Below are positions 9,901-28,726 of a stretch of 40,968 nt of DNA, piece after piece; position 1 is the first letter of the stretch, and every line of letters starts with the position of its first letter. This DNA comes from Pirellulales bacterium (lineage in GTDB: Bacteria; Planctomycetota; Planctomycetia; Pirellulales; UBA1268). Below the pieces are notes generated by a model. The model worked only from the letters and a program-made list of their open reading frames with translations, did not search any database and had not been told where the DNA came from. The stretch is taken from NCBI GenBank assembly GCA_044339885.1, contig JBIIUP010000003.1:1-40968 (forward strand), in the 5' to 3' direction. Both the position numbers and the translations under genes were made by a program.

Positions 9901-10652
9901 ATCAGGAGCGCCCGCGGGAGCGTCGAGTCGAGCACGCGGCAGACCGCCACCACGAAGCCGGCGCCGCCGTCCCGCCAGCCGCCCCGCACCGCGTAGCTCT
10001 GCAGAAAGGCCGCCAGGCCGCGGAGCGGCAGCATCCAGGCCCGCGGCCGCGGCCGTCGGTCGCGGAGCAGGCCGGCCTTCAGCGGCGCGTACCGCAGCGC
10101 GCGGGCGACGACGTCGGCGCAGTCGGTGTAGCTGCGGTGGACGATCGAGCCGGCCAGCATCGCCGGCCTGCGGCCGGTCACCACCCGCTCGTGGACCGGC
10201 AGCGGCAAGAAGCCGGCGGTCGTGCGGTTGAAGAGCCGCAGCACCCGCTGGTTCCGCCAGGCGCCGTGGCGGATCTCGCGCGGGCCGATGTAGGTCCGGC
10301 GCCGGAAGGCGTAGCAGGCGGCGGGATCGGCGAGGTCGGCGGCGGCGACGGCACTGCGGGCCTCGTCGTCGAGCATCTCGTCGGCGTCGATCGACAGGAT
10401 CCAGTCGTGGGCGGCCAGCTCGACCGCCCGGCGCTTCTGCGGGCCGTAGCCGAGGAACGGCTGGTGCTCGACCCGGGCTCCCGAGGCGTGGGCGATCTCC
10501 ACCGTGCCGTCGTTCGATCCCGAGTCGACGACGAGCCGCTCGGCGCAGAGATCGACGCTCGCGAGCGTCGCGGGCAGCCGCCGGGACTCGTTGTGGGTGA
10601 TGATCACCGCCGAGATCGGCAGCGTTCCCGCGGTCGGCGGTGACCCGCTCAT
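9759..10652 (-). CDS. Glycosyltransferase family 2 (KdtX/WaaE-like)
   Basis: ISAVIITHNE, VVDSGSNDGT, FLGYGPQK, WILSIDADE (DXD), VHE motif. Confidence 0.9.
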   Translation of the reverse strand: MSGSPPTAGTLPISAVIITHNESRRLPATLASVDLCAERLVVDSGSNDGTVEIAHASGARVEHQPFLGYGPQKRRAVELAAHDWILSIDADEMLDDEARSAVAAADLADPAACYAFRRRTYIGPREIRHGAWRNQRVLRLFNRTTAGFLPLPVHERVVTGRRPAMLAGSIVHRSYTDCADVVARALRYAPLKAGLLRDRRPRPRAWMLPLRGLAAFLQSYAVRGGWRDGGAGFVVAVCRVLDSTLPRALLIEEATAAADDATGIGERSPSDGPPRPLQGDSRGPRANAPREPDAPHA

Positions 10653-12364
10653 GACGGGCTCGCGGTGACGCCGCCCCGGGTCGAAATCGCCGGGGTAGGG
10701 CAGGTCGCGGCGGCGGGCCGTGGCAGCGGGAACTCCAGCGTGAACCTGCTGCCGCGGCCGGGTTCGCTGGCGACGCTGATGTCACCGCCGTGCTCGCGGA
10801 GGATCTTGCGGCTCACCGTCAGGCCCAGGCCCGTGCCCCGGGAGCCCTTGGTGGAGACGAAGAGCGTGAAGATGTCGGCGAGCGTCTCGGGGGCCATGCC
10901 CGTGCCGTTGTCGGCGACCACGATCCGTGCCTGCGCGGCCTCCGTGTCGACCTCGACCGTGATCGAGACACGGCCGTCGGGGACCTCCTCGACGGCGTCG
11001 AGTGCGTTGGTGACGACGTTGAGGACGGCCCGCGAGATCCCCTCCGCGTCGCACCGGGCCGGCGGCAGGTCGGCGGGTCGGGACCACGCGATCGTGGTGC
11101 CCTGGTCGCGGGCCCGCTGGGCCACCGTTTCGACGACGTCGTCGATCACGCCGCCGAGGTCGGTGTCGGCGAGATCGGGCTCGCGTTCCTTGCTGAAGGA
11201 GAGCATGTCCATGACCAGCGAGGAGATCTTCGCCTGGTTGCGCCGGACGATGTCCCAGCCCTTGCGGACGACGGCGAGGTCGTCGTTCTCCAGCCCCATC
11301 TCCACGAGATAGTCGCCGCCGCGGATGCCCTGGAGGATGTTCTTGATGTGGTGCGAGAGCGTGGCGATCGTCTGTCCCACGGCCGCCAGCCGCTCCGTCT
11401 GCAGCTTCGCGGAATAGAAGGCGGTGTCCTCCACGGCGAGGGCCGCCTGGTGGCCGATCGCGATCATGAGCTTGAGGTGCTCGTCGCTGAACCGCGGCCC
11501 GCTCGCTGCCGCCGCCTCGTCCAGCGGCGTCGTGGTGTCGACGTAGATCACGCCGACGGTGTCGTAGCGTCCCCGCAGCGGAACGCAGATCGCCTCGCGG
11601 ACGCCGGTGCGAACCACGCTGTTGCCCGAGGCGAAGCGGTCGTCCTCCTGGGCGTCGCTCGTCAGCACGCCCTCGCCGTTGGTCAGCACGTAGTCGAGGA
11701 TCGTGCGGCTGATCGCCATGGTCTCCTCGACGCCCGCCCGCCGGTCGCGGCGGGCCTTGGTCCGCAGTTCCCGCGTCTCGGAATCGAGGAGCATGATGCA
11801 GCCGCGGTCCGCCTCGATCCACTCGAAGACCAGCTCGAGGATCCGGCTCAAGAGCTCGTCGATGTCGAGGGTGTGGCTGACGGCCAGCGACGTGCGGTAC
11901 ATGACCTGGAGATTGCTGCGGGCCCGGGACAGCCAGTGTGCCGGGGATGGGCCGGGGGGCGACGCCCGGGCGATCGAGTCGTCGTCGCGCATGGCGCGGA
12001 CGATCCGCGAGCCGTCGGCGGCGCTCGCCGGCGGCACGATGTCGACCGAGCCGAGCGCCAGCTCCGCCGCCTGGTCCTGGGCGTAGACGAGGACGGTGCG
12101 GCCGACGCGGATCCGGTCGCCGTTGGCCAGGTCGGCCCGCTCGACCCGCCGCTCGTTGACGAACGTGCCGTTGGAGCTCTTGAGGTCGCCGACGACGAAC
12201 CCCCCCCCGACGCGGCGGATCTCGGCGTGCCGCCGGGAGATCTCGTGGTCGTCGAGCTGGACGACGTTGCCGGGCTCCCGCCCGATGCTCACGGTCCCGC
12301 CGTGGCCGTCGAGATCGATTCGGGTGCCCCGCTGGGCGCCTTGGATGACGACGAGTGCAGGCAC
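10649..12364 (-). CDS. FHA-GAF-HisKA-HATPase sensor histidine kinase
   Basis: FHA: IGR, ISRRHA, SSNGTFVN. GAF: AICVPL, VGVIYVD, IGHQAALAVE. H-box LSHHIKN, N-box NVVTNALDA, DNGTGM and GTGLGL. GTG start at 12364. Confidence 0.92.
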   Translation of the reverse strand: MPALVVIQGAQRGTRIDLDGHGGTVSIGREPGNVVQLDDHEISRRHAEIRRVGGGFVVGDLKSSNGTFVNERRVERADLANGDRIRVGRTVLVYAQDQAAELALGSVDIVPPASAADGSRIVRAMRDDDSIARASPPGPSPAHWLSRARSNLQVMYRTSLAVSHTLDIDELLSRILELVFEWIEADRGCIMLLDSETRELRTKARRDRRAGVEETMAISRTILDYVLTNGEGVLTSDAQEDDRFASGNSVVRTGVREAICVPLRGRYDTVGVIYVDTTTPLDEAAAASGPRFSDEHLKLMIAIGHQAALAVEDTAFYSAKLQTERLAAVGQTIATLSHHIKNILQGIRGGDYLVEMGLENDDLAVVRKGWDIVRRNQAKISSLVMDMLSFSKEREPDLADTDLGGVIDDVVETVAQRARDQGTTIAWSRPADLPPARCDAEGISRAVLNVVTNALDAVEEVPDGRVSITVEVDTEAAQARIVVADNGTGMAPETLADIFTLFVSTKGSRGTGLGLTVSRKILREHGGDISVASEPGRGSRFTLEFPLPRPAAATCPTPAISTRGGVTASPS

Positions 12365-23925: not shown

Positions 23926-23955
23926 TTGCAACCGCCGCAGCCGGCAGGGTAGGAT
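23926..23955 (+). promoter_or_regulatory. Putative sigma70 promoter of the tro operon
   Basis: TTGCAA (23926)-N18-TAGGAT (23950). Confidence 0.5.
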
Positions 23956-23993
23956 TTTGGACGCTCAAAAAATGTTTTTTGACCCCTCAAAAA
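23954..23993. promoter_or_regulatory. Two tandem DtxR/TroR-like palindromic operators
   Basis: ATTTTGG-acgc-TCAAAAA (23954-23971) and the perfect TTTTTGA-cccc-TCAAAAA (23976-23993), 22 bp apart, form an AT island directly before the metal ABC operon. Confidence 0.7.
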
Positions 23994-24082
23994 TTCGCCG
24001 TACCCGGCGCGGCTCCGGCCGTGGCGGAAGCTGCGGCCGCAGGCCCGGCTGCGAGGGGCGTCCCGGCCGCGGAACGGCCCTG

Positions 24083-25012
24083 GTGATCGGCGTCGCCGCC
24101 GCCCTGGCGGCGGCCTGCCTGGCGGGCTGTTCCCCGGGGTCCGCTCGGACCGCAGGCTCGTCACGCCCCCGCATCCTCTGCACCACGACGATCGTCGCGG
24201 ATCTGGTCCGGGAAGTCGCCGGCGACCGGGCCGAGGTGGAGAGCCTCATGGCCGCGGGCATCGACCCGCACTCCTACCGGGCCACGCCGCGGGATGCCGA
24301 CCGCCTGGCGACCGCCGACCTCGTCGTGGCCCACGGCCTGCGTCTGGAGGGAAAGCTCGCCGACCTGCTGGCCCGGCTCGGCGACCGCGTGCCGGTCGTG
24401 GCCGTCGCCGACGCGGTGCCCCCGGAACGGCTCCTCGGAGTGGGGGCTGGGCAGTTCGATCCCCACGTCTGGTTCGACGCCGCGCTCTGGGCCGGCTGCG
24501 CGGCCCCCGTGGCCGCAGCCCTCGCCCGCATCGATCCCGACGGTGCCGCCGCCTACAGCGGCCGCGCCGCGGCGTGGGCCGCGCGGCTGGAGGCCCTCGA
24601 CGCCGAGCTCCGCGCGCGGCTGGAATCGATCCCGCCGCCGCGCCGCGTGCTCGTCACCGCGCACGACGCGTTCCGCTACTTCGGCCGGGCCTACGGGATC
24701 GAGGTCGTCGGTGTGCAGGGCGTGAGCACCGAGAGCGAGGCGGGCCTGGCCGACATCAACGGCCTCGTCGAGTTGCTCGTCGACCGCCGCATCCCGGCCG
24801 TCTTTCTGGAGACGAGCGTTTCCGACCGCAACGTCGCGGCGCTCGTCGAGGGGGCGGCGGCCCGGGGGCACGTGGTGACCCTGGGCGGCCGGCTCTATTC
24901 CGACTCGCTCGGGGCCGCAGGGAGCGGCGCCGAGACGCTCGCGGAGGCGCTGGAGACCAACGTCCGGACCATCGTCGCCGCGCTGGCGGCTCCCGCCGCG
25001 GACGGAGGCTAG
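24083..25012 (+). CDS. troA: Mn/Zn/Fe ABC transporter substrate-binding lipoprotein (TroA type); the start may be upstream (in-frame ATG at 23972)
   Basis: Lipobox LAGC; ligand motifs DPHSY, DPHVW, TAHDAF and YSDSLG (His/His/His/Asp, as in TroA). Confidence 0.9.
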   Translation: MIGVAAALAAACLAGCSPGSARTAGSSRPRILCTTTIVADLVREVAGDRAEVESLMAAGIDPHSYRATPRDADRLATADLVVAHGLRLEGKLADLLARLGDRVPVVAVADAVPPERLLGVGAGQFDPHVWFDAALWAGCAAPVAAALARIDPDGAAAYSGRAAAWAARLEALDAELRARLESIPPPRRVLVTAHDAFRYFGRAYGIEVVGVQGVSTESEAGLADINGLVELLVDRRIPAVFLETSVSDRNVAALVEGAAARGHVVTLGGRLYSDSLGAAGSGAETLAEALETNVRTIVAALAAPAADGG

Positions 25013-25015
25013 GCC

Positions 25016-25798
25016 GTGCCCCCCGTCGCGCTCGGGCCGCCGCTCGTCGAGTTCCACGACGTGACCGTCGCCTACGGCCGGCGGCCCGTGCTGTGGAACA
25101 TCGACCTCGCGATCGAAACGGCCTGCCTCTTCGGCGTCATCGGCCCCAACGGCGCGGGCAAGAGCACGCTCCTGAAGGCGGCGCTGGGACTGGTGCCGGT
25201 GGTGGGAGGCACGGTGCGGTTCGAGGGGCGGCCGCTCGACGAGGTCCGCCGCCGGGTCGGCTACGTGCCGCAGCGCGAGACCGTCGACTGGGATTTTCCC
25301 GCCAGCGTGATGGACGTGGTCCTCATGGGCACCTACGCGGGACTGGGATGGTTCCGCCGCCCCGGCCCGCGGGAACGGGCGGTGGCCCGGGAGAGCCTCG
25401 ACCGCGTGGGCCTGGCGGACGTCGCCGACCGGCAGATCGGCCGGCTCTCCGGGGGCCAGCAGCAGCGGGTGTTCCTCGCCCGGGCGTTGGCGCAGGAGGC
25501 GCGGATCTACCTGCTCGACGAGCCGATGGCCGGCGTCGACGCACGATCGCAGGAGCGGATCTTCGCGGTGCTCGCCGAGTTGCGTGCCGAGGGCCGCCTC
25601 GTGATCGTGGTGCACCACGACCTGCGGACCGCCGCGGAGTGGTTCGATCGGGTGGCGCTGGTCGACATGCGGCTGGTCGCGGCCGGTCCGACGGCCGCCG
25701 TGCTCACGCCGGAGAACCTGCGGCGCACCTACGCCGGACAGATGGAACTGCTCGACGAGATCGGCAGGGCGGTCGCCTCCCGGGGCCGCACGCCGTGA
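25016..25798 (+). CDS. troB: Metal ABC transporter ATP-binding protein (TroB/MntB type)
   Basis: [40 protein letters not shown]. Confidence 0.93.
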
Positions 25799-27018
25799 CC
25801 GCCGCCATCCTCACGCACAACACGCTGGTGGTGGCGGCCGGCGTCGCAGCGGTGGGGTTCGCCGCGGGCATGGTGGGCGGCCTGGGGCTGCTGCGGAAGC
25901 GGCCGCTCGTGGCCGACGCCGCGGCCCACGCCACGCTCCTGGGGGTCGCCGGCGGGTTTCTCGCCACCGGCCGCCGCGACCTGCCGACGCTCCTCGCCGG
26001 CGCGCTGGTCACCGCGGTGGCCGCGCTGGGCACGCTCGTGCTCGTGCGGCGGTTCACCCGGACCCGCGACGACGCGGCCACCGCGATCACGATCGGCGTC
26101 GGCTTCGGTGCCGGGATCGCCCTCCTCTCCGGCATCACCGCCCGCGGCATCCCCGGCGCCGCAGGCCTGGGGCAGTTCCTCCTCGGCCACACCGCGGCGC
26201 TCGCCTCCCGCGACGCCCTGCTGTTGGCCGCGGTGTCGGCCGTCACGGTGGGGGTGGTGTGGCTCGGCTTCAAGGAGGCGATGCTCGTGGCCTTCGACGC
26301 CGAGTTCGCGGCCGCCACGGGCTGGCCGGTCGCCGCAATCGACCTGGCGGTGGTCACGCTCGTGGCGGTGATGGTCGTCGTCGGTCTGCCCGCGGCGGGG
26401 GCGGTGCTCGTCACGGGGCTGGTGGTGATCCCGCCCGTCGCGGCCCGCCAGTGGACCGACCGCGGGTCGACGCTCCTGCTGCTCGCCGGGCTGTTCGGGC
26501 TGGCGGCGGCGGGGGCCGGCGTGATCGTCGGCGCCGCGGCGCCGCGGATCGCCGCGGCGGTGGGGCTGCAGACCCCGACGGGCCTGGCCACCGGCCCGCT
26601 GGTGGTGCTCGCGGCCGCCGCGATCGCCGCCGTGTCGTTCGTGGCGGCGCCGGACCGGGGCTGGATCGTGCGCGGCCTCCGGGCGGCCGAGGAGCGGCGC
26701 CGCTGGACCGCGGGGCTGATCCTCGACGCCTGCCTGCGGGCCGCCGGCGACGGTGCGGGCCGCAGCTTCTCCGCCGCCGCGGTGCGGGCCGCGACCGGGG
26801 GCGGCCGGCGGGCCGTGGCCCGCGGCTGGGAATCACTCGTGCGGGAGGGAATCGTCGCGCCGGAGTCGGCCGCCGACACCTGGCGACTGACGGAGACGGG
26901 CCGGGCCGTCGCGGCGGAGCGCCGGGCGAGGATCCGCGGCTGGGAGGCCGCCTTCGATGCGGCGCCGGCCGCCGCCCGCGAGGCCTTCTCGCTGGAGCTC
27001 CGGGAGCCGCCCCGATGA
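25795..27018 (+). CDS. troC: Metal ABC permease (ABC-3, TroC type) with a C-terminal degenerate DtxR-like winged-helix tail
   Basis: [36 protein letters not shown]; tail SLVREGIV...[15 protein letters not shown] overlap with troB. Confidence 0.88.
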
Positions 27019-28256
27019 TCGCCCCGATGCACCTCTGGGCCCTGGCGACGGCGGCCGCCGTCGCGGCCGCGTGCGGGCTGGTCGGCACGCTGCTGGTCGT
27101 GCGGCGGATGAGCCTGCTGGGCGACGCGATCGGCCACGCCGTCCTGCCGGGCATCGCGGTGGCCGTGCTCGCCGGCGGCCGCCCCGGCGGCCTCCTGGTG
27201 TTCGCCGCAGCGACGGCCACGGCCCTCCTCACCGTCTGGCTCACGCGGTTCCTGCGGACGGCCGTCGGCCTGAGCGAGGACGCCGGGGCAGGGGTCGTGT
27301 TCACGGCCCTGTTCGCGGCCGGCGTGGTGATCGTGTCGACGGCCGGCGCGCGGATGCACCTCGATCCCGACTGCGTGCTCTACGGCATTCTCGAGTTCGT
27401 GCCCTTCGACACGGTGGTCGTCGCCGGCAGCGCGGTGCCGCGCGGCTTCCTCGCGGCGGCTGCGGTGCTCGCGGTGGTCGGCTGCGGGCTGGCCGCCACC
27501 TGGAAGCTCCAGGCGTTCGCCGCCTTCGACGCGGAGGCGGCGCGGGCGGCCGGCGTGCCGGTGGCGGCAGTCACCGGCGGCCTGCTCGCGGCGACGGCAC
27601 TGGCCACCGTCGCGGGGTTCGAGGTCGTGGGGGCGGTGCTCGTGGTGGCCCTGCTCGTGGTGCCCGCCGCCGCCGCGGAACTCCTCTTCCACCGCCTGCA
27701 CCACGTCGCGCTGGCCGCGGTCGTCATCGCCGTCGTCGGCGCGTGCCTGGGCTACCTCGCGGCCTGGCGGTGGAACACCAACGCCGCCGGCATGATCGCG
27801 GTCGTCCTCGGGCTGGAATACCTCGCCGCGGTCGTGCTGGCGCCGGGCGATGGCCTGCTCGCCCGGGCGGCCTCGCGGCTGCGGTACGCCTGGCGGGTGG
27901 CGAGCGAGGACCGGCTGGCCGCGGTCTGGCGGGCGGGGGAGCAGGGGCAGGCGGTGCCACCGCCGCGGACGGCGCTGGAGCGGGTGGCCGCGGTCTGGCT
28001 GGCGGTCACGCGCCGCGTGGTCGGCGGAACGACCCTCTCGCCCGTGGGCCGGCGCGAGGCGGAGATGGTGGTGCGGTCGCACCGCCTCTGGGAGGCGTGG
28101 CTGGGCCGGCACGCCGACCTGCCCCTCGATCACCTGCATCCGCCGGCCGAATGGGTGGAGCACCATCTCGGCGCGGCGATGCGGCGGCGGATCGAGGCGG
28201 AGGTGGGACGCGTCGACGGCGACCCCCACGGCCGCGAGATTCCGCCCGAGGCGTGA
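27015..28256 (+). CDS. troD: Metal ABC permease (ABC-3, TroD type) fused to a DtxR/MntR metal-binding/dimerisation domain
   Basis: RRMSLLGDAIGHAVLPGI, HLDPDCVLYG; tail SEDRL...GRREAEMVVRSHRLWEAWL...HLHPPAEWVEHHL...DPHGREIP. ATGA overlap with troC. Confidence 0.9.
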   Translation: MIAPMHLWALATAAAVAAACGLVGTLLVVRRMSLLGDAIGHAVLPGIAVAVLAGGRPGGLLVFAAATATALLTVWLTRFLRTAVGLSEDAGAGVVFTALFAAGVVIVSTAGARMHLDPDCVLYGILEFVPFDTVVVAGSAVPRGFLAAAAVLAVVGCGLAATWKLQAFAAFDAEAARAAGVPVAAVTGGLLAATALATVAGFEVVGAVLVVALLVVPAAAAELLFHRLHHVALAAVVIAVVGACLGYLAAWRWNTNAAGMIAVVLGLEYLAAVVLAPGDGLLARAASRLRYAWRVASEDRLAAVWRAGEQGQAVPPPRTALERVAAVWLAVTRRVVGGTTLSPVGRREAEMVVRSHRLWEAWLGRHADLPLDHLHPPAEWVEHHLGAAMRRRIEAEVGRVDGDPHGREIPPEA

Positions 28257-28297: not shown

Positions 28298-28553
28298 GGC
28301 TCGGGGCTGCCCGTGCCCTGTCGCCGGACGTTCGCTCCGCCCATCCCGGCAGTCCTGTTCGGCACGGCGGATGTGGGGCAGGTCGAGCGGCGTCGCGCGA
28401 GGCTCGGGGCTGCCCGTGCCCTGTCGCCGGACGCTCGCTCCGCCCATCCTGGCAGTCCTGTTCGGCACGGCGGATGCGGGGCAGGTCGAGCGGCGTCGCG
28501 CGAGGCTCGGGGCTGCCCGTGCCCTGTCGCCGGACGTTCGCTCCGCCCATCCT
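28298..28553. repeat. About 2.5 tandem copies of a 103-bp unit starting with the GGGGCTGCCCGTGCCC arm
   Basis: Units start at 28298, 28401 and 28504 and differ by only a few substitutions. Confidence 0.95.
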
Positions 28554-28726
28554 GGGCTGCGCTCACTCCGTGCTGGCTGCGCTTCGGCATCCTGCCTGCG
28601 CTTGCCAGCAAGGCCGGCTCCCGGGCACGGGCAGCCCCTTGCGAGGCCGCATTTCCCGCTCTGCCCATCCCCGTGCTGCGCTCAGTCCGTGCTGGCTGCG
28701 CTTGCCTGCAATGCCGGCTCCCGGGC
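28509..28726. repeat. Family-1 element (130 bp, 28509-28638) followed by an internally deleted partial copy
   Basis: 16-bp inverted repeat GGGGCTGCCCGTGCCC / GGGCACGGGCAGCCCC. The interior matches 5519-5628; a partial copy lies at ~28656-28726. Confidence 0.85.

Follow-up and report, generated by a model that had tools for sequence, protein, structure and literature searches.

The troABCD operon of a Pirellulales bacterium (NCBI GenBank assembly GCA_044339885.1) lies in a 40,968-nt stretch of contig JBIIUP010000003.1 (positions 1 to 40,968, forward strand), hereafter the window. It encodes an ATP-binding cassette (ABC) importer whose two permeases, TroC and TroD, each carry a C-terminal tail related to the DtxR/MntR family of metal-dependent repressors. 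The TroD tail could be a tethered metal sensor that gates transport, with transcription of troABCD controlled separately; this reading stands a little short of an even chance. It is favoured because the TroD tail has all its ligands, no DNA-reading head and a conserved linker helix, and because the ATPase, TroB, has no regulatory domain. Metal binding, the absence of DNA binding, the gating of transport and the identity of the operator-binding protein are inferred from sequence. In a broader form, judged slightly less probable, DtxR-derived sensors on both permeases, once a pseudo-symmetric pair, may gate import by cytoplasmic metal, with a soluble DtxR handling transcription. The window would then represent a late stage, in which one member of the pair appears as a ligand-free winged helix and the other as a head-less sensor.

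The genes and the parts of the two permeases are as follows (aa, amino acids; dN/dS, ratio of nonsynonymous to synonymous substitution rates).

23972-25012, plus strand: troA, ZnuA/TroA-type substrate-binding protein (PF01297, E 1e-73), start revised to the ATG at 23972
25016-25798, plus strand: troB, ABC ATPase of 260 aa (ABC_tran at residues 28-172, E 7e-28)
25795-27018, plus strand: troC, 407 aa, GTG start overlapping the troB stop
25795-26619, plus strand: transmembrane part of TroC, ABC-3 permease (PF00950, E 2e-37)
26620-27018, plus strand: TroC tail of 132 aa, decayed DtxR-like domain as judged from models, alignments, profile comparison and dN/dS
27015-28256, plus strand: troD, 413 aa, ATG start overlapping the troC stop
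27015-27854, plus strand: transmembrane part of TroD, ABC-3 permease (PF00950, E 8e-36)
27855-28256, plus strand: TroD tail of 133 aa, DtxR/MntR-like (Pfam, alignments, models)

Both permeases belong to the ABC-3 family, PF00950 scoring 129.5 bits over TroC residues 14-250 and 124.3 bits over TroD residues 7-274 (curated cut-off 20.1). The operon has the make-up of an importer, with a TroA-type binding protein, an ABC ATPase and a gene order common to related loci, and would be of the Mn/Zn/Fe type. Trans-inhibited importers are marked by a sensor domain at the C-terminus of the ATPase; TroB consists of the ABC_tran core only. Beyond ABC_tran, the Pfam scan of TroB gives P-loop family matches alone and no extra regulatory domain. 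Since TroB lacks a regulatory extension, substrate feedback, if there is any, would have to act via the permeases.

TroD residues 343-410 match Fe_dep_repr_C (PF02742) with E 3.5e-16 and 59-62 bits, against a cut-off of 27. Scanned with this model and with Fe_dep_repress (PF01325), the helix-turn-helix (HTH) model of the family, the two tails give Fe_dep_repr_C on TroD only, and Fe_dep_repress on neither at E up to 1. Within NCBIfam the nearest models to the TroD tail are MntR and DtxR, at scores far under their cut-offs, and by sequence the tail meets solved MntR/DtxR proteins at E 4e-15. Tail structures were modelled with AlphaFold on alignments of relatives. The TroD model (pLDDT, the predicted local confidence, 82) resembles DtxR/MntR repressors, DR2539 being matched at E 1e-5 with template-modelling (TM) scores of 0.66-0.72. 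The parts of the TroD tail are as follows.

27858-27944, plus strand: linker helix and ligand-bearing helix 1, the conserved linker continuing into helix 1
27972-28007, plus strand: helix substituting for the HTH (predicted structure)
28041-28244, plus strand: wing and Fe_dep_repr_C (Pfam, predicted structure)
Ligand-type residues, TroD protein numbering: E298, D299, H356, E360, H373, H375, E379, E382, H383, D403 and H405

Conservation was assessed on 61 related loci from Planctomycetota assemblies, 52 of which have both permeases readable; with the window added, these give 53 D tails. All 53 are invariant at E18, D19, H76, E80, H93, H95, E99, E102, H103, D123 and H125 (tail numbering), and the alignment holds 41 invariant columns altogether. 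The ligand-type positions align with the H/E/H/E/E/H of solved MntR/DtxR proteins, and these columns, placed on helix 1, helix 4 and helices 5-6 as in the DtxR/MntR family, are presumably the true ligands, as DtxR/MntR structures and the alignments with solved proteins indicate. Every one of the 52 relatives has a D tail, 132-161 aa long. In 10 pairs compared, dN/dS ranges over 0.08-0.28 in the D tail and over 0.02-0.30 in the membrane parts. A homology search with the D tail returns 507 proteins at E up to 1e-3, and all 120 listed are permeases that combine ABC-3 with Fe_dep_repr_C.

The least conserved stretch of the D tail across the 53 sequences is where the HTH and its recognition helix should sit. 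In the model a single helix (tail residues 40-51) takes the place of the two HTH helices of DtxR. Counted on the alignment from the helix-1 aromatic column to the H76 column, the region spans 50 residues in the window, a median of 54 in the 53 clade D tails and a median of 64 in eight soluble DtxR proteins, the window D tail thus being 14 residues shorter than the last. The intact DNA-binding head that marks a fused domain of the YtgC-YtgR type is therefore absent from the D tail. The original prediction, made from the sequence alone, had described a TroD tail that keeps the DtxR/MntR ligand set behind a shortened HTH, and this description agrees with both the alignment and the model.

The D tail starts directly after the last transmembrane helix, and neither the alignment nor the model has a long flexible linker between it and the membrane part. 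The linker is conserved at R4, W13, R14 and V15, and is modelled as a 5-residue turn followed by one long helix that runs into helix 1. Being both conserved and modelled as one helix into helix 1, it is not a loose tether. Helix 1 is thereby connected with the last transmembrane helix through a short turn and a helix, so that a movement could be passed to the permease.

In the mechanism proposed here, the TroD tail would be the working part, a membrane-tethered metal binder that has lost half its HTH and no longer reads DNA. Cytoplasmic metal filling its site would clamp helix 1 onto the C-terminal helices, and the movement of helix 1 would reach the permease through the 5-residue turn and the long conserved helix. 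Import would then be slowed or stopped, a trans-inhibition acting via the membrane subunit. The invariant ligand set and the position of the D tail directly behind the last transmembrane helix would also suit a metal acceptor or buffer, a domain at the cytoplasmic exit that takes the imported ion and hands it on or buffers it with no regulation of transport, as would an ancestral form in which each permease had a domain of this kind. Mechanical coupling is instead what the conserved linker helix suggests, and in known members of the family the DtxR-type site works as a slow, allosteric sensor. No acceptor of this kind is known among ABC-3 importers, and we regard this alternative as improbable.

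The TroC tail differs from the TroD tail in what it has kept. Pfam gives it no significant family, the matches below threshold being winged-helix models only (HVO_A0261_N, E 0.005; EarA, E 0.22), and an IclR-like NCBIfam model is likewise sub-threshold at E 0.02. The AlphaFold model (pLDDT 84) has a strand, two helices, a beta-hairpin and a long helix, i.e. a winged helix, which is complete and contains a basic helix. Its nearest solved folds are MarR-type proteins, Sso10a and AspA (E about 7e-3, TM about 0.5). A TroC-tail profile run against the sequences of solved structures finds nothing significant; the best match has E 0.58, and all are winged-helix proteins. Two parts can be delimited.

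About 26764-26889, plus strand: TroC tail winged helix, with a recognition-type helix at 26806-26844
26893-26994, plus strand: TroC tail remnant of helix 4/5, ligands lost and C-terminal end truncated

In the window 'RIRGWE' of TroC aligns with 'SHRLWE', and H76, H95, H103 and DPHG are missing from all 22 C tails. The winged-helix-like, truncated and ligand-free TroC tail of the original prediction is thus borne out, Fe_dep_repr_C being absent from it. The asymmetry holds in orthologues wherever a C tail exists, with 22/22 C tails devoid of the ligands and 53/53 D tails possessing them.

The descent of the TroC tail became clear through more distant relatives. A profile of the D tail finds matches in 101 of 301 Planctomycetota genomes, and in at least 25 of the 301 (a count of listed rows) there are two matches on the same strand, separated by 1.1-1.7 kb, which places such a tail on both permeases. 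Eighteen such places were fetched; they were hand-picked for paired matches or top scores, so that the counts that follow are not frequencies. In 14 of the 18 both the TroC-type and the TroD-type permease are tailed, with tails of 122-202 aa. Fe_dep_repr_C exceeds its cut-off in all of these distant tails (14/14 C-type, 18/18 D-type). Fe_dep_repress is found in 0/32 of them at E up to 0.01, or 0/34 with the window tails.

The distant C-type tails form a graded series. Five retain HRLWE, DHVH..AE..EH and DPHG; seven have H95 replaced by D, most with an 'ASPH' ending; two are without most ligands. Compared by hhalign with the distant TroC-type tails that bear Fe_dep_repr_C, the C-tail profile of the window clade aligns over 142 columns with a probability of 98.3% and E 2.6e-14, its 'RRRR.AAW...LD.AP..AR' falling on their 'R.HRLWE.YL...ADIA.DH'. 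A direct comparison of the C-tail and D-tail profiles is modest (76%, E 2.3e-5, 43 columns), and the kinship of the two tails became clear because the distant TroC-type tails bridge them. Since the window C tail is homologous over its full length to tails bearing Fe_dep_repr_C, the complementary decay of two DtxR-derived tails, proposed earlier, is real, and the profile alignment and the ligand-loss series identify the window C tail as the decayed end of a once-complete DtxR-like domain. The ancestral planctomycete form would have carried a DtxR/MntR-like cytoplasmic domain on each permease.

The median length of the HTH region is 65 residues in the distant C-type tails, 63 in the distant D-type, 64 in soluble DtxR and 54 in the D tails of the window clade. 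The TroD-type tails of loci L070 and L077 have a full-length helix-turn-helix region, '...EEVAAPLGYPPEKLGAALRRCRARGEV...'. Full-length regions in some distant TroD-type tails mean that the shortening is specific to the window clade and not common to all TroD-type tails.

The C tail is constrained, as its dN/dS indicates, but weakly: the ratio is 0.29-0.74 and lies below 1 in 10/10 pairs. Across the 52 loci it is long (>90 aa) in 21, intermediate in three and short (40 aa or less) in 28. On a quick maximum-likelihood TroD tree, with distant TroD-type proteins as the root, long C tails are found on every basal branch and the short state needs at least five changes. Within the genus a C-tail match occurs in three of five other genomes searched and in none of the remaining two. 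Stand-alone C tails, sought in 121 genomes of the order, were not found: apart from two small, weakly matching frames (E about 2e-4), every match is attached to a permease. A word-indexed search with the TroC tail gave one match among 8000 scored candidates, the Ala/Arg-rich sequence defeating the word index; relatives of the C tail were found instead by tblastn on the fetched loci and by profile searches. Records titled 'Candidatus Kuenenia' (L001, L002, L004, L009, L012, L022, L032, L038 and L039) hold TroDs 66-77% identical to that of the window. On the tree these fall among Pirellulales/Planctomycetaceae rows, and the record titles may be unreliable labels.

The repeated loss of the C tail, its fast evolution and the stepwise decay of ligands in TroC-type tails would fit a reading of both tails as functionless leftovers of an old gene fusion. 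The D tail speaks against this, by its presence in every relative, its invariant columns, its low dN/dS and its retention in the 507 homologues, and we consider such a relic very improbable. In the preferred reading, only the TroC tail would be a weakly constrained remnant, the fading partner of the ancestral pair, with the winged helix kept and the ligands gone.

Upstream of troA two palindromes are present where the original prediction had placed operators.

23955-23970, no strand assigned: predicted operator palindrome 1, TTTTGGACGCTCAAAA, consensus TTTTGA-N4-TCAAAA, directly 3' of the TAGGAT hexamer
23977-23992, no strand assigned: predicted operator palindrome 2, TTTTGACCCCTCAAAA, within troA codons 2-7

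Each is a perfect palindrome, and together they form a direct repeat with 22-nt spacing. They lie in an A+T-rich island 5' of troA, in a region of 71% G+C (0.69-0.79 across the window), which reads TAGGAT, TTTTGGACGCTCAAAA, AATG and TTTTTGACCCCTCAAAA in order. A promoter scan gives no plus-strand sigma-70 match at the scan's threshold; by our own reading TTGCAA-N18-TAGGAT is a candidate promoter, scoring 8/12, and the TAGGAT hexamer of the window is TATGAT in most relatives. The predicted operators overlap the troA start codon and the putative -10 region. A pair of TTTTGA-N4/5-(T)CAAAA sites with a spacing of 21-22 nt occurs in 31 of the 42 upstream regions compared; seven regions have one site and four have none, a degenerate version being present in three of these four. 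The 31 two-site regions comprise 13 with a long C tail and 18 without.

In 35/37 motif-bearing loci the ATG between the palindromes begins a reading frame that continues into TroA, and the protein there starts with the conserved M-(F/I)-F-(D/E)-x-x-K, coded partly by the second palindrome. The second palindrome is thus coding and the troA start is at 23972; the TTG start at 23957 given in the list of open reading frames is probably wrong. An RNA hairpin reading of the palindromes was rejected, as palindrome 1 adjoins the -10 hexamer, and transcription would cover no more than part of it. It is also countered by a copy on contig C108 that has no ATG between the halves. This copy (C108:11285-11323) is the only other tandem TTTTGA-N4-TCAAAA pair in the organism's own genome (3.16 Mb, 94% complete), where palindrome copies with 0-1 mismatches occur on contigs C178 and C108 only. 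The pair precedes, by about 10 nt, a minus-strand gene of 337 aa (10261-11274) whose N-terminus, ...GFSLVELLVVIAIIG..., is putatively of the prepilin type. The same regulator may control this gene as well, making it the regulon's second member.

The proteins that could read these sites include a soluble one. A single soluble DtxR-family protein is encoded in the genome, on another contig (C252); it has 221 aa and comprises an HTH (Fe_dep_repress), Fe_dep_repr_C and an SH3-like C-terminal domain. In seven distant Planctomycetota loci (L085-L091), picked for a second short-frame match near the operon, a soluble DtxR gene stands beside troA, divergent or co-directional upstream; in 7/7 it is full-length and 34-47% identical to the soluble DtxR of the genome studied here. 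Three of the four divergent loci have an exact TTTTGA-N4-TCAAAA in the gap separating the DtxR gene from troA, and the fourth has TTTTAG...CTAAAA. Three A+T-rich distant loci are uninformative for the palindrome, and two co-directional loci have no room for a site. The soluble DtxR is most likely the reader of the operator, as gene context suggests, because the palindrome is symmetric, the neighbouring gene has a normal HTH and the site is independent of the state of the tails. A soluble homodimeric repressor of the DtxR family would then bind the tandem operators.

The architecture could be put to a different use, as in Chlamydia, with the TroD tail, alone or together with the TroC tail, cleaved or tethered, repressing troABCD when metal-loaded. 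The same architecture occurs in YtgC-YtgR, for which cleavage and metal-dependent repression are reported as shown in a review (PMC5599777). The invariant ligands of the D tail, the overlap of the predicted operators with promoter and start codon, and the complete winged helix with its basic helix in TroC fit such a repressor, and both tails jointly would give one head and one sensor. The D tail, however, is one HTH helix short, and the region concerned varies while the operator is nearly constant over the same loci. In the 28 relatives whose C tail is short or absent (three more being intermediate) the D tail persists; the operator occurs with and without the C tail, which has been lost at least five times. 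With its symmetric halves, the operator is better suited to a homodimer than to two unlike heads. Fe_dep_repress is matched by none of the 34 tails, there is no long flexible linker, and a soluble DtxR with a full HTH exists and adjoins the operon in relatives. We regard repression by the tails as unlikely, though less so than the acceptor described above. On the same grounds the heterodimer of C and D tails on the operators, one of two options in the original prediction, is disfavoured; of its split metalloregulator, the DtxR descent and the complementary decay stand, and the joint repressor is not supported. Its other option, a metal-sensing gate in the cytoplasm, is the one favoured here. 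A prediction of the complex between the TroD and TroC tails, made without controls, scored 0.01 against a mark of 0.32 and carries no weight either way.

The D tail might alternatively pair with a monomer of the soluble DtxR at the membrane and so link repression to the number or state of the transporters. Fe_dep_repr_C is, in the Pfam description, the dimerisation domain of the family, and this genome has a soluble DtxR as well as tailed permeases, the two being neighbours in the 7/7 picked loci. Against this, tblastn with the D tail gives 31-44% identity over part of the query in the distant soluble DtxR genes. We know of no precedent for such titration, and rank it marginally below the acceptor.

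Several points weigh against a tethered sensor combined with a separate soluble repressor. MetNI and ModBC, importers that are trans-inhibited, have the sensor on the ATPase and not on the permease. Proteins of the DtxR family usually function as dimers, and each transporter has a single D tail. The winged helix of TroC-type tails is still full-size and under apparent purifying selection, which a pure metal sensor would not need, and some distant TroD-type tails keep a full-length HTH region (range 47-69 residues). Gating itself is a proposal drawn from sequence features. It is gene neighbourhood that ties the operator to the soluble DtxR; the genome also encodes two Fur-family proteins, and the seven loci with an adjoining DtxR gene were picked, their counts not being frequencies. 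In Chlamydia, the one precedent that has been studied, the fused domain of YtgC-YtgR is cleaved and represses its own operon, according to the same review (PMC5599777).

Among known systems the closest is YtgC-YtgR, which shares with TroD an ABC-3 permease and a C-terminal DtxR-like domain with ligands in one polypeptide, within an A-B-C-D importer operon. Chlamydia and Planctomycetota both belong to the PVC group. The planctomycete fusion differs in being on both permeases and ancestrally complete; in Chlamydia, YtgC alone is known to carry the domain. It differs further in that the tails lack a recognisable DtxR HTH, the D tail being one helix short, and in that a separate soluble DtxR is present. 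Treponema troABCD-troR has the same transporter gene order and encodes the soluble DtxR-family TroR with the transporter, troR following troD. It is resembled in this by the distant planctomycetes with a DtxR gene beside troA and a palindrome; in the genome studied here the soluble DtxR is on another contig and the permeases carry added DtxR-derived tails. Soluble MntR/DtxR proteins (Deinococcus DR2539, PDB 8pvt; mycobacterial MntR, 5zr4) resemble the D tail in fold, sequence and H/E ligand positions, whereas the D tail is membrane-tethered, present in a single copy per transporter, one HTH helix short and without the SH3-like third domain. The likeness to MetNI and ModBC lies in the proposed logic, the transported substrate binding a cytoplasmic domain of the transporter and stopping import; it is a functional analogy only, their sensors being at the C-terminus of the ATPase and unrelated to DtxR. 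Directly 3' of troD, at 28298-28555, there is a tandem repeat of 2.5 copies of a 103-bp unit with 97% identity.

Permease-repressor fusions as such have been seen in 11 phyla (Thompson et al. 2012, as cited in review PMC5599777). A search of the literature on YtgR/YtgC, DtxR-permease fusions and Planctomycetes, which did not extend to Thompson et al. 2012 itself, found no double-tailed permeases, head-less tails or this operator. The fusion is thus known, and what appears new is the combination of tails on both permeases, the want of a recognisable head, and a soluble DtxR with a conserved palindrome alongside. This combination argues for the recruitment of a repressor fold to serve in the transporter itself. 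The proteins are small and the ligands obvious, which makes the system easy to test. If the proposal is true, the planctomycete tails would offer a natural series in which one half of a paired sensor decays, from full ligands through partial ones to none and to loss, and the importer would be the first of the ABC type in which substrate feedback is exerted via the membrane subunit.

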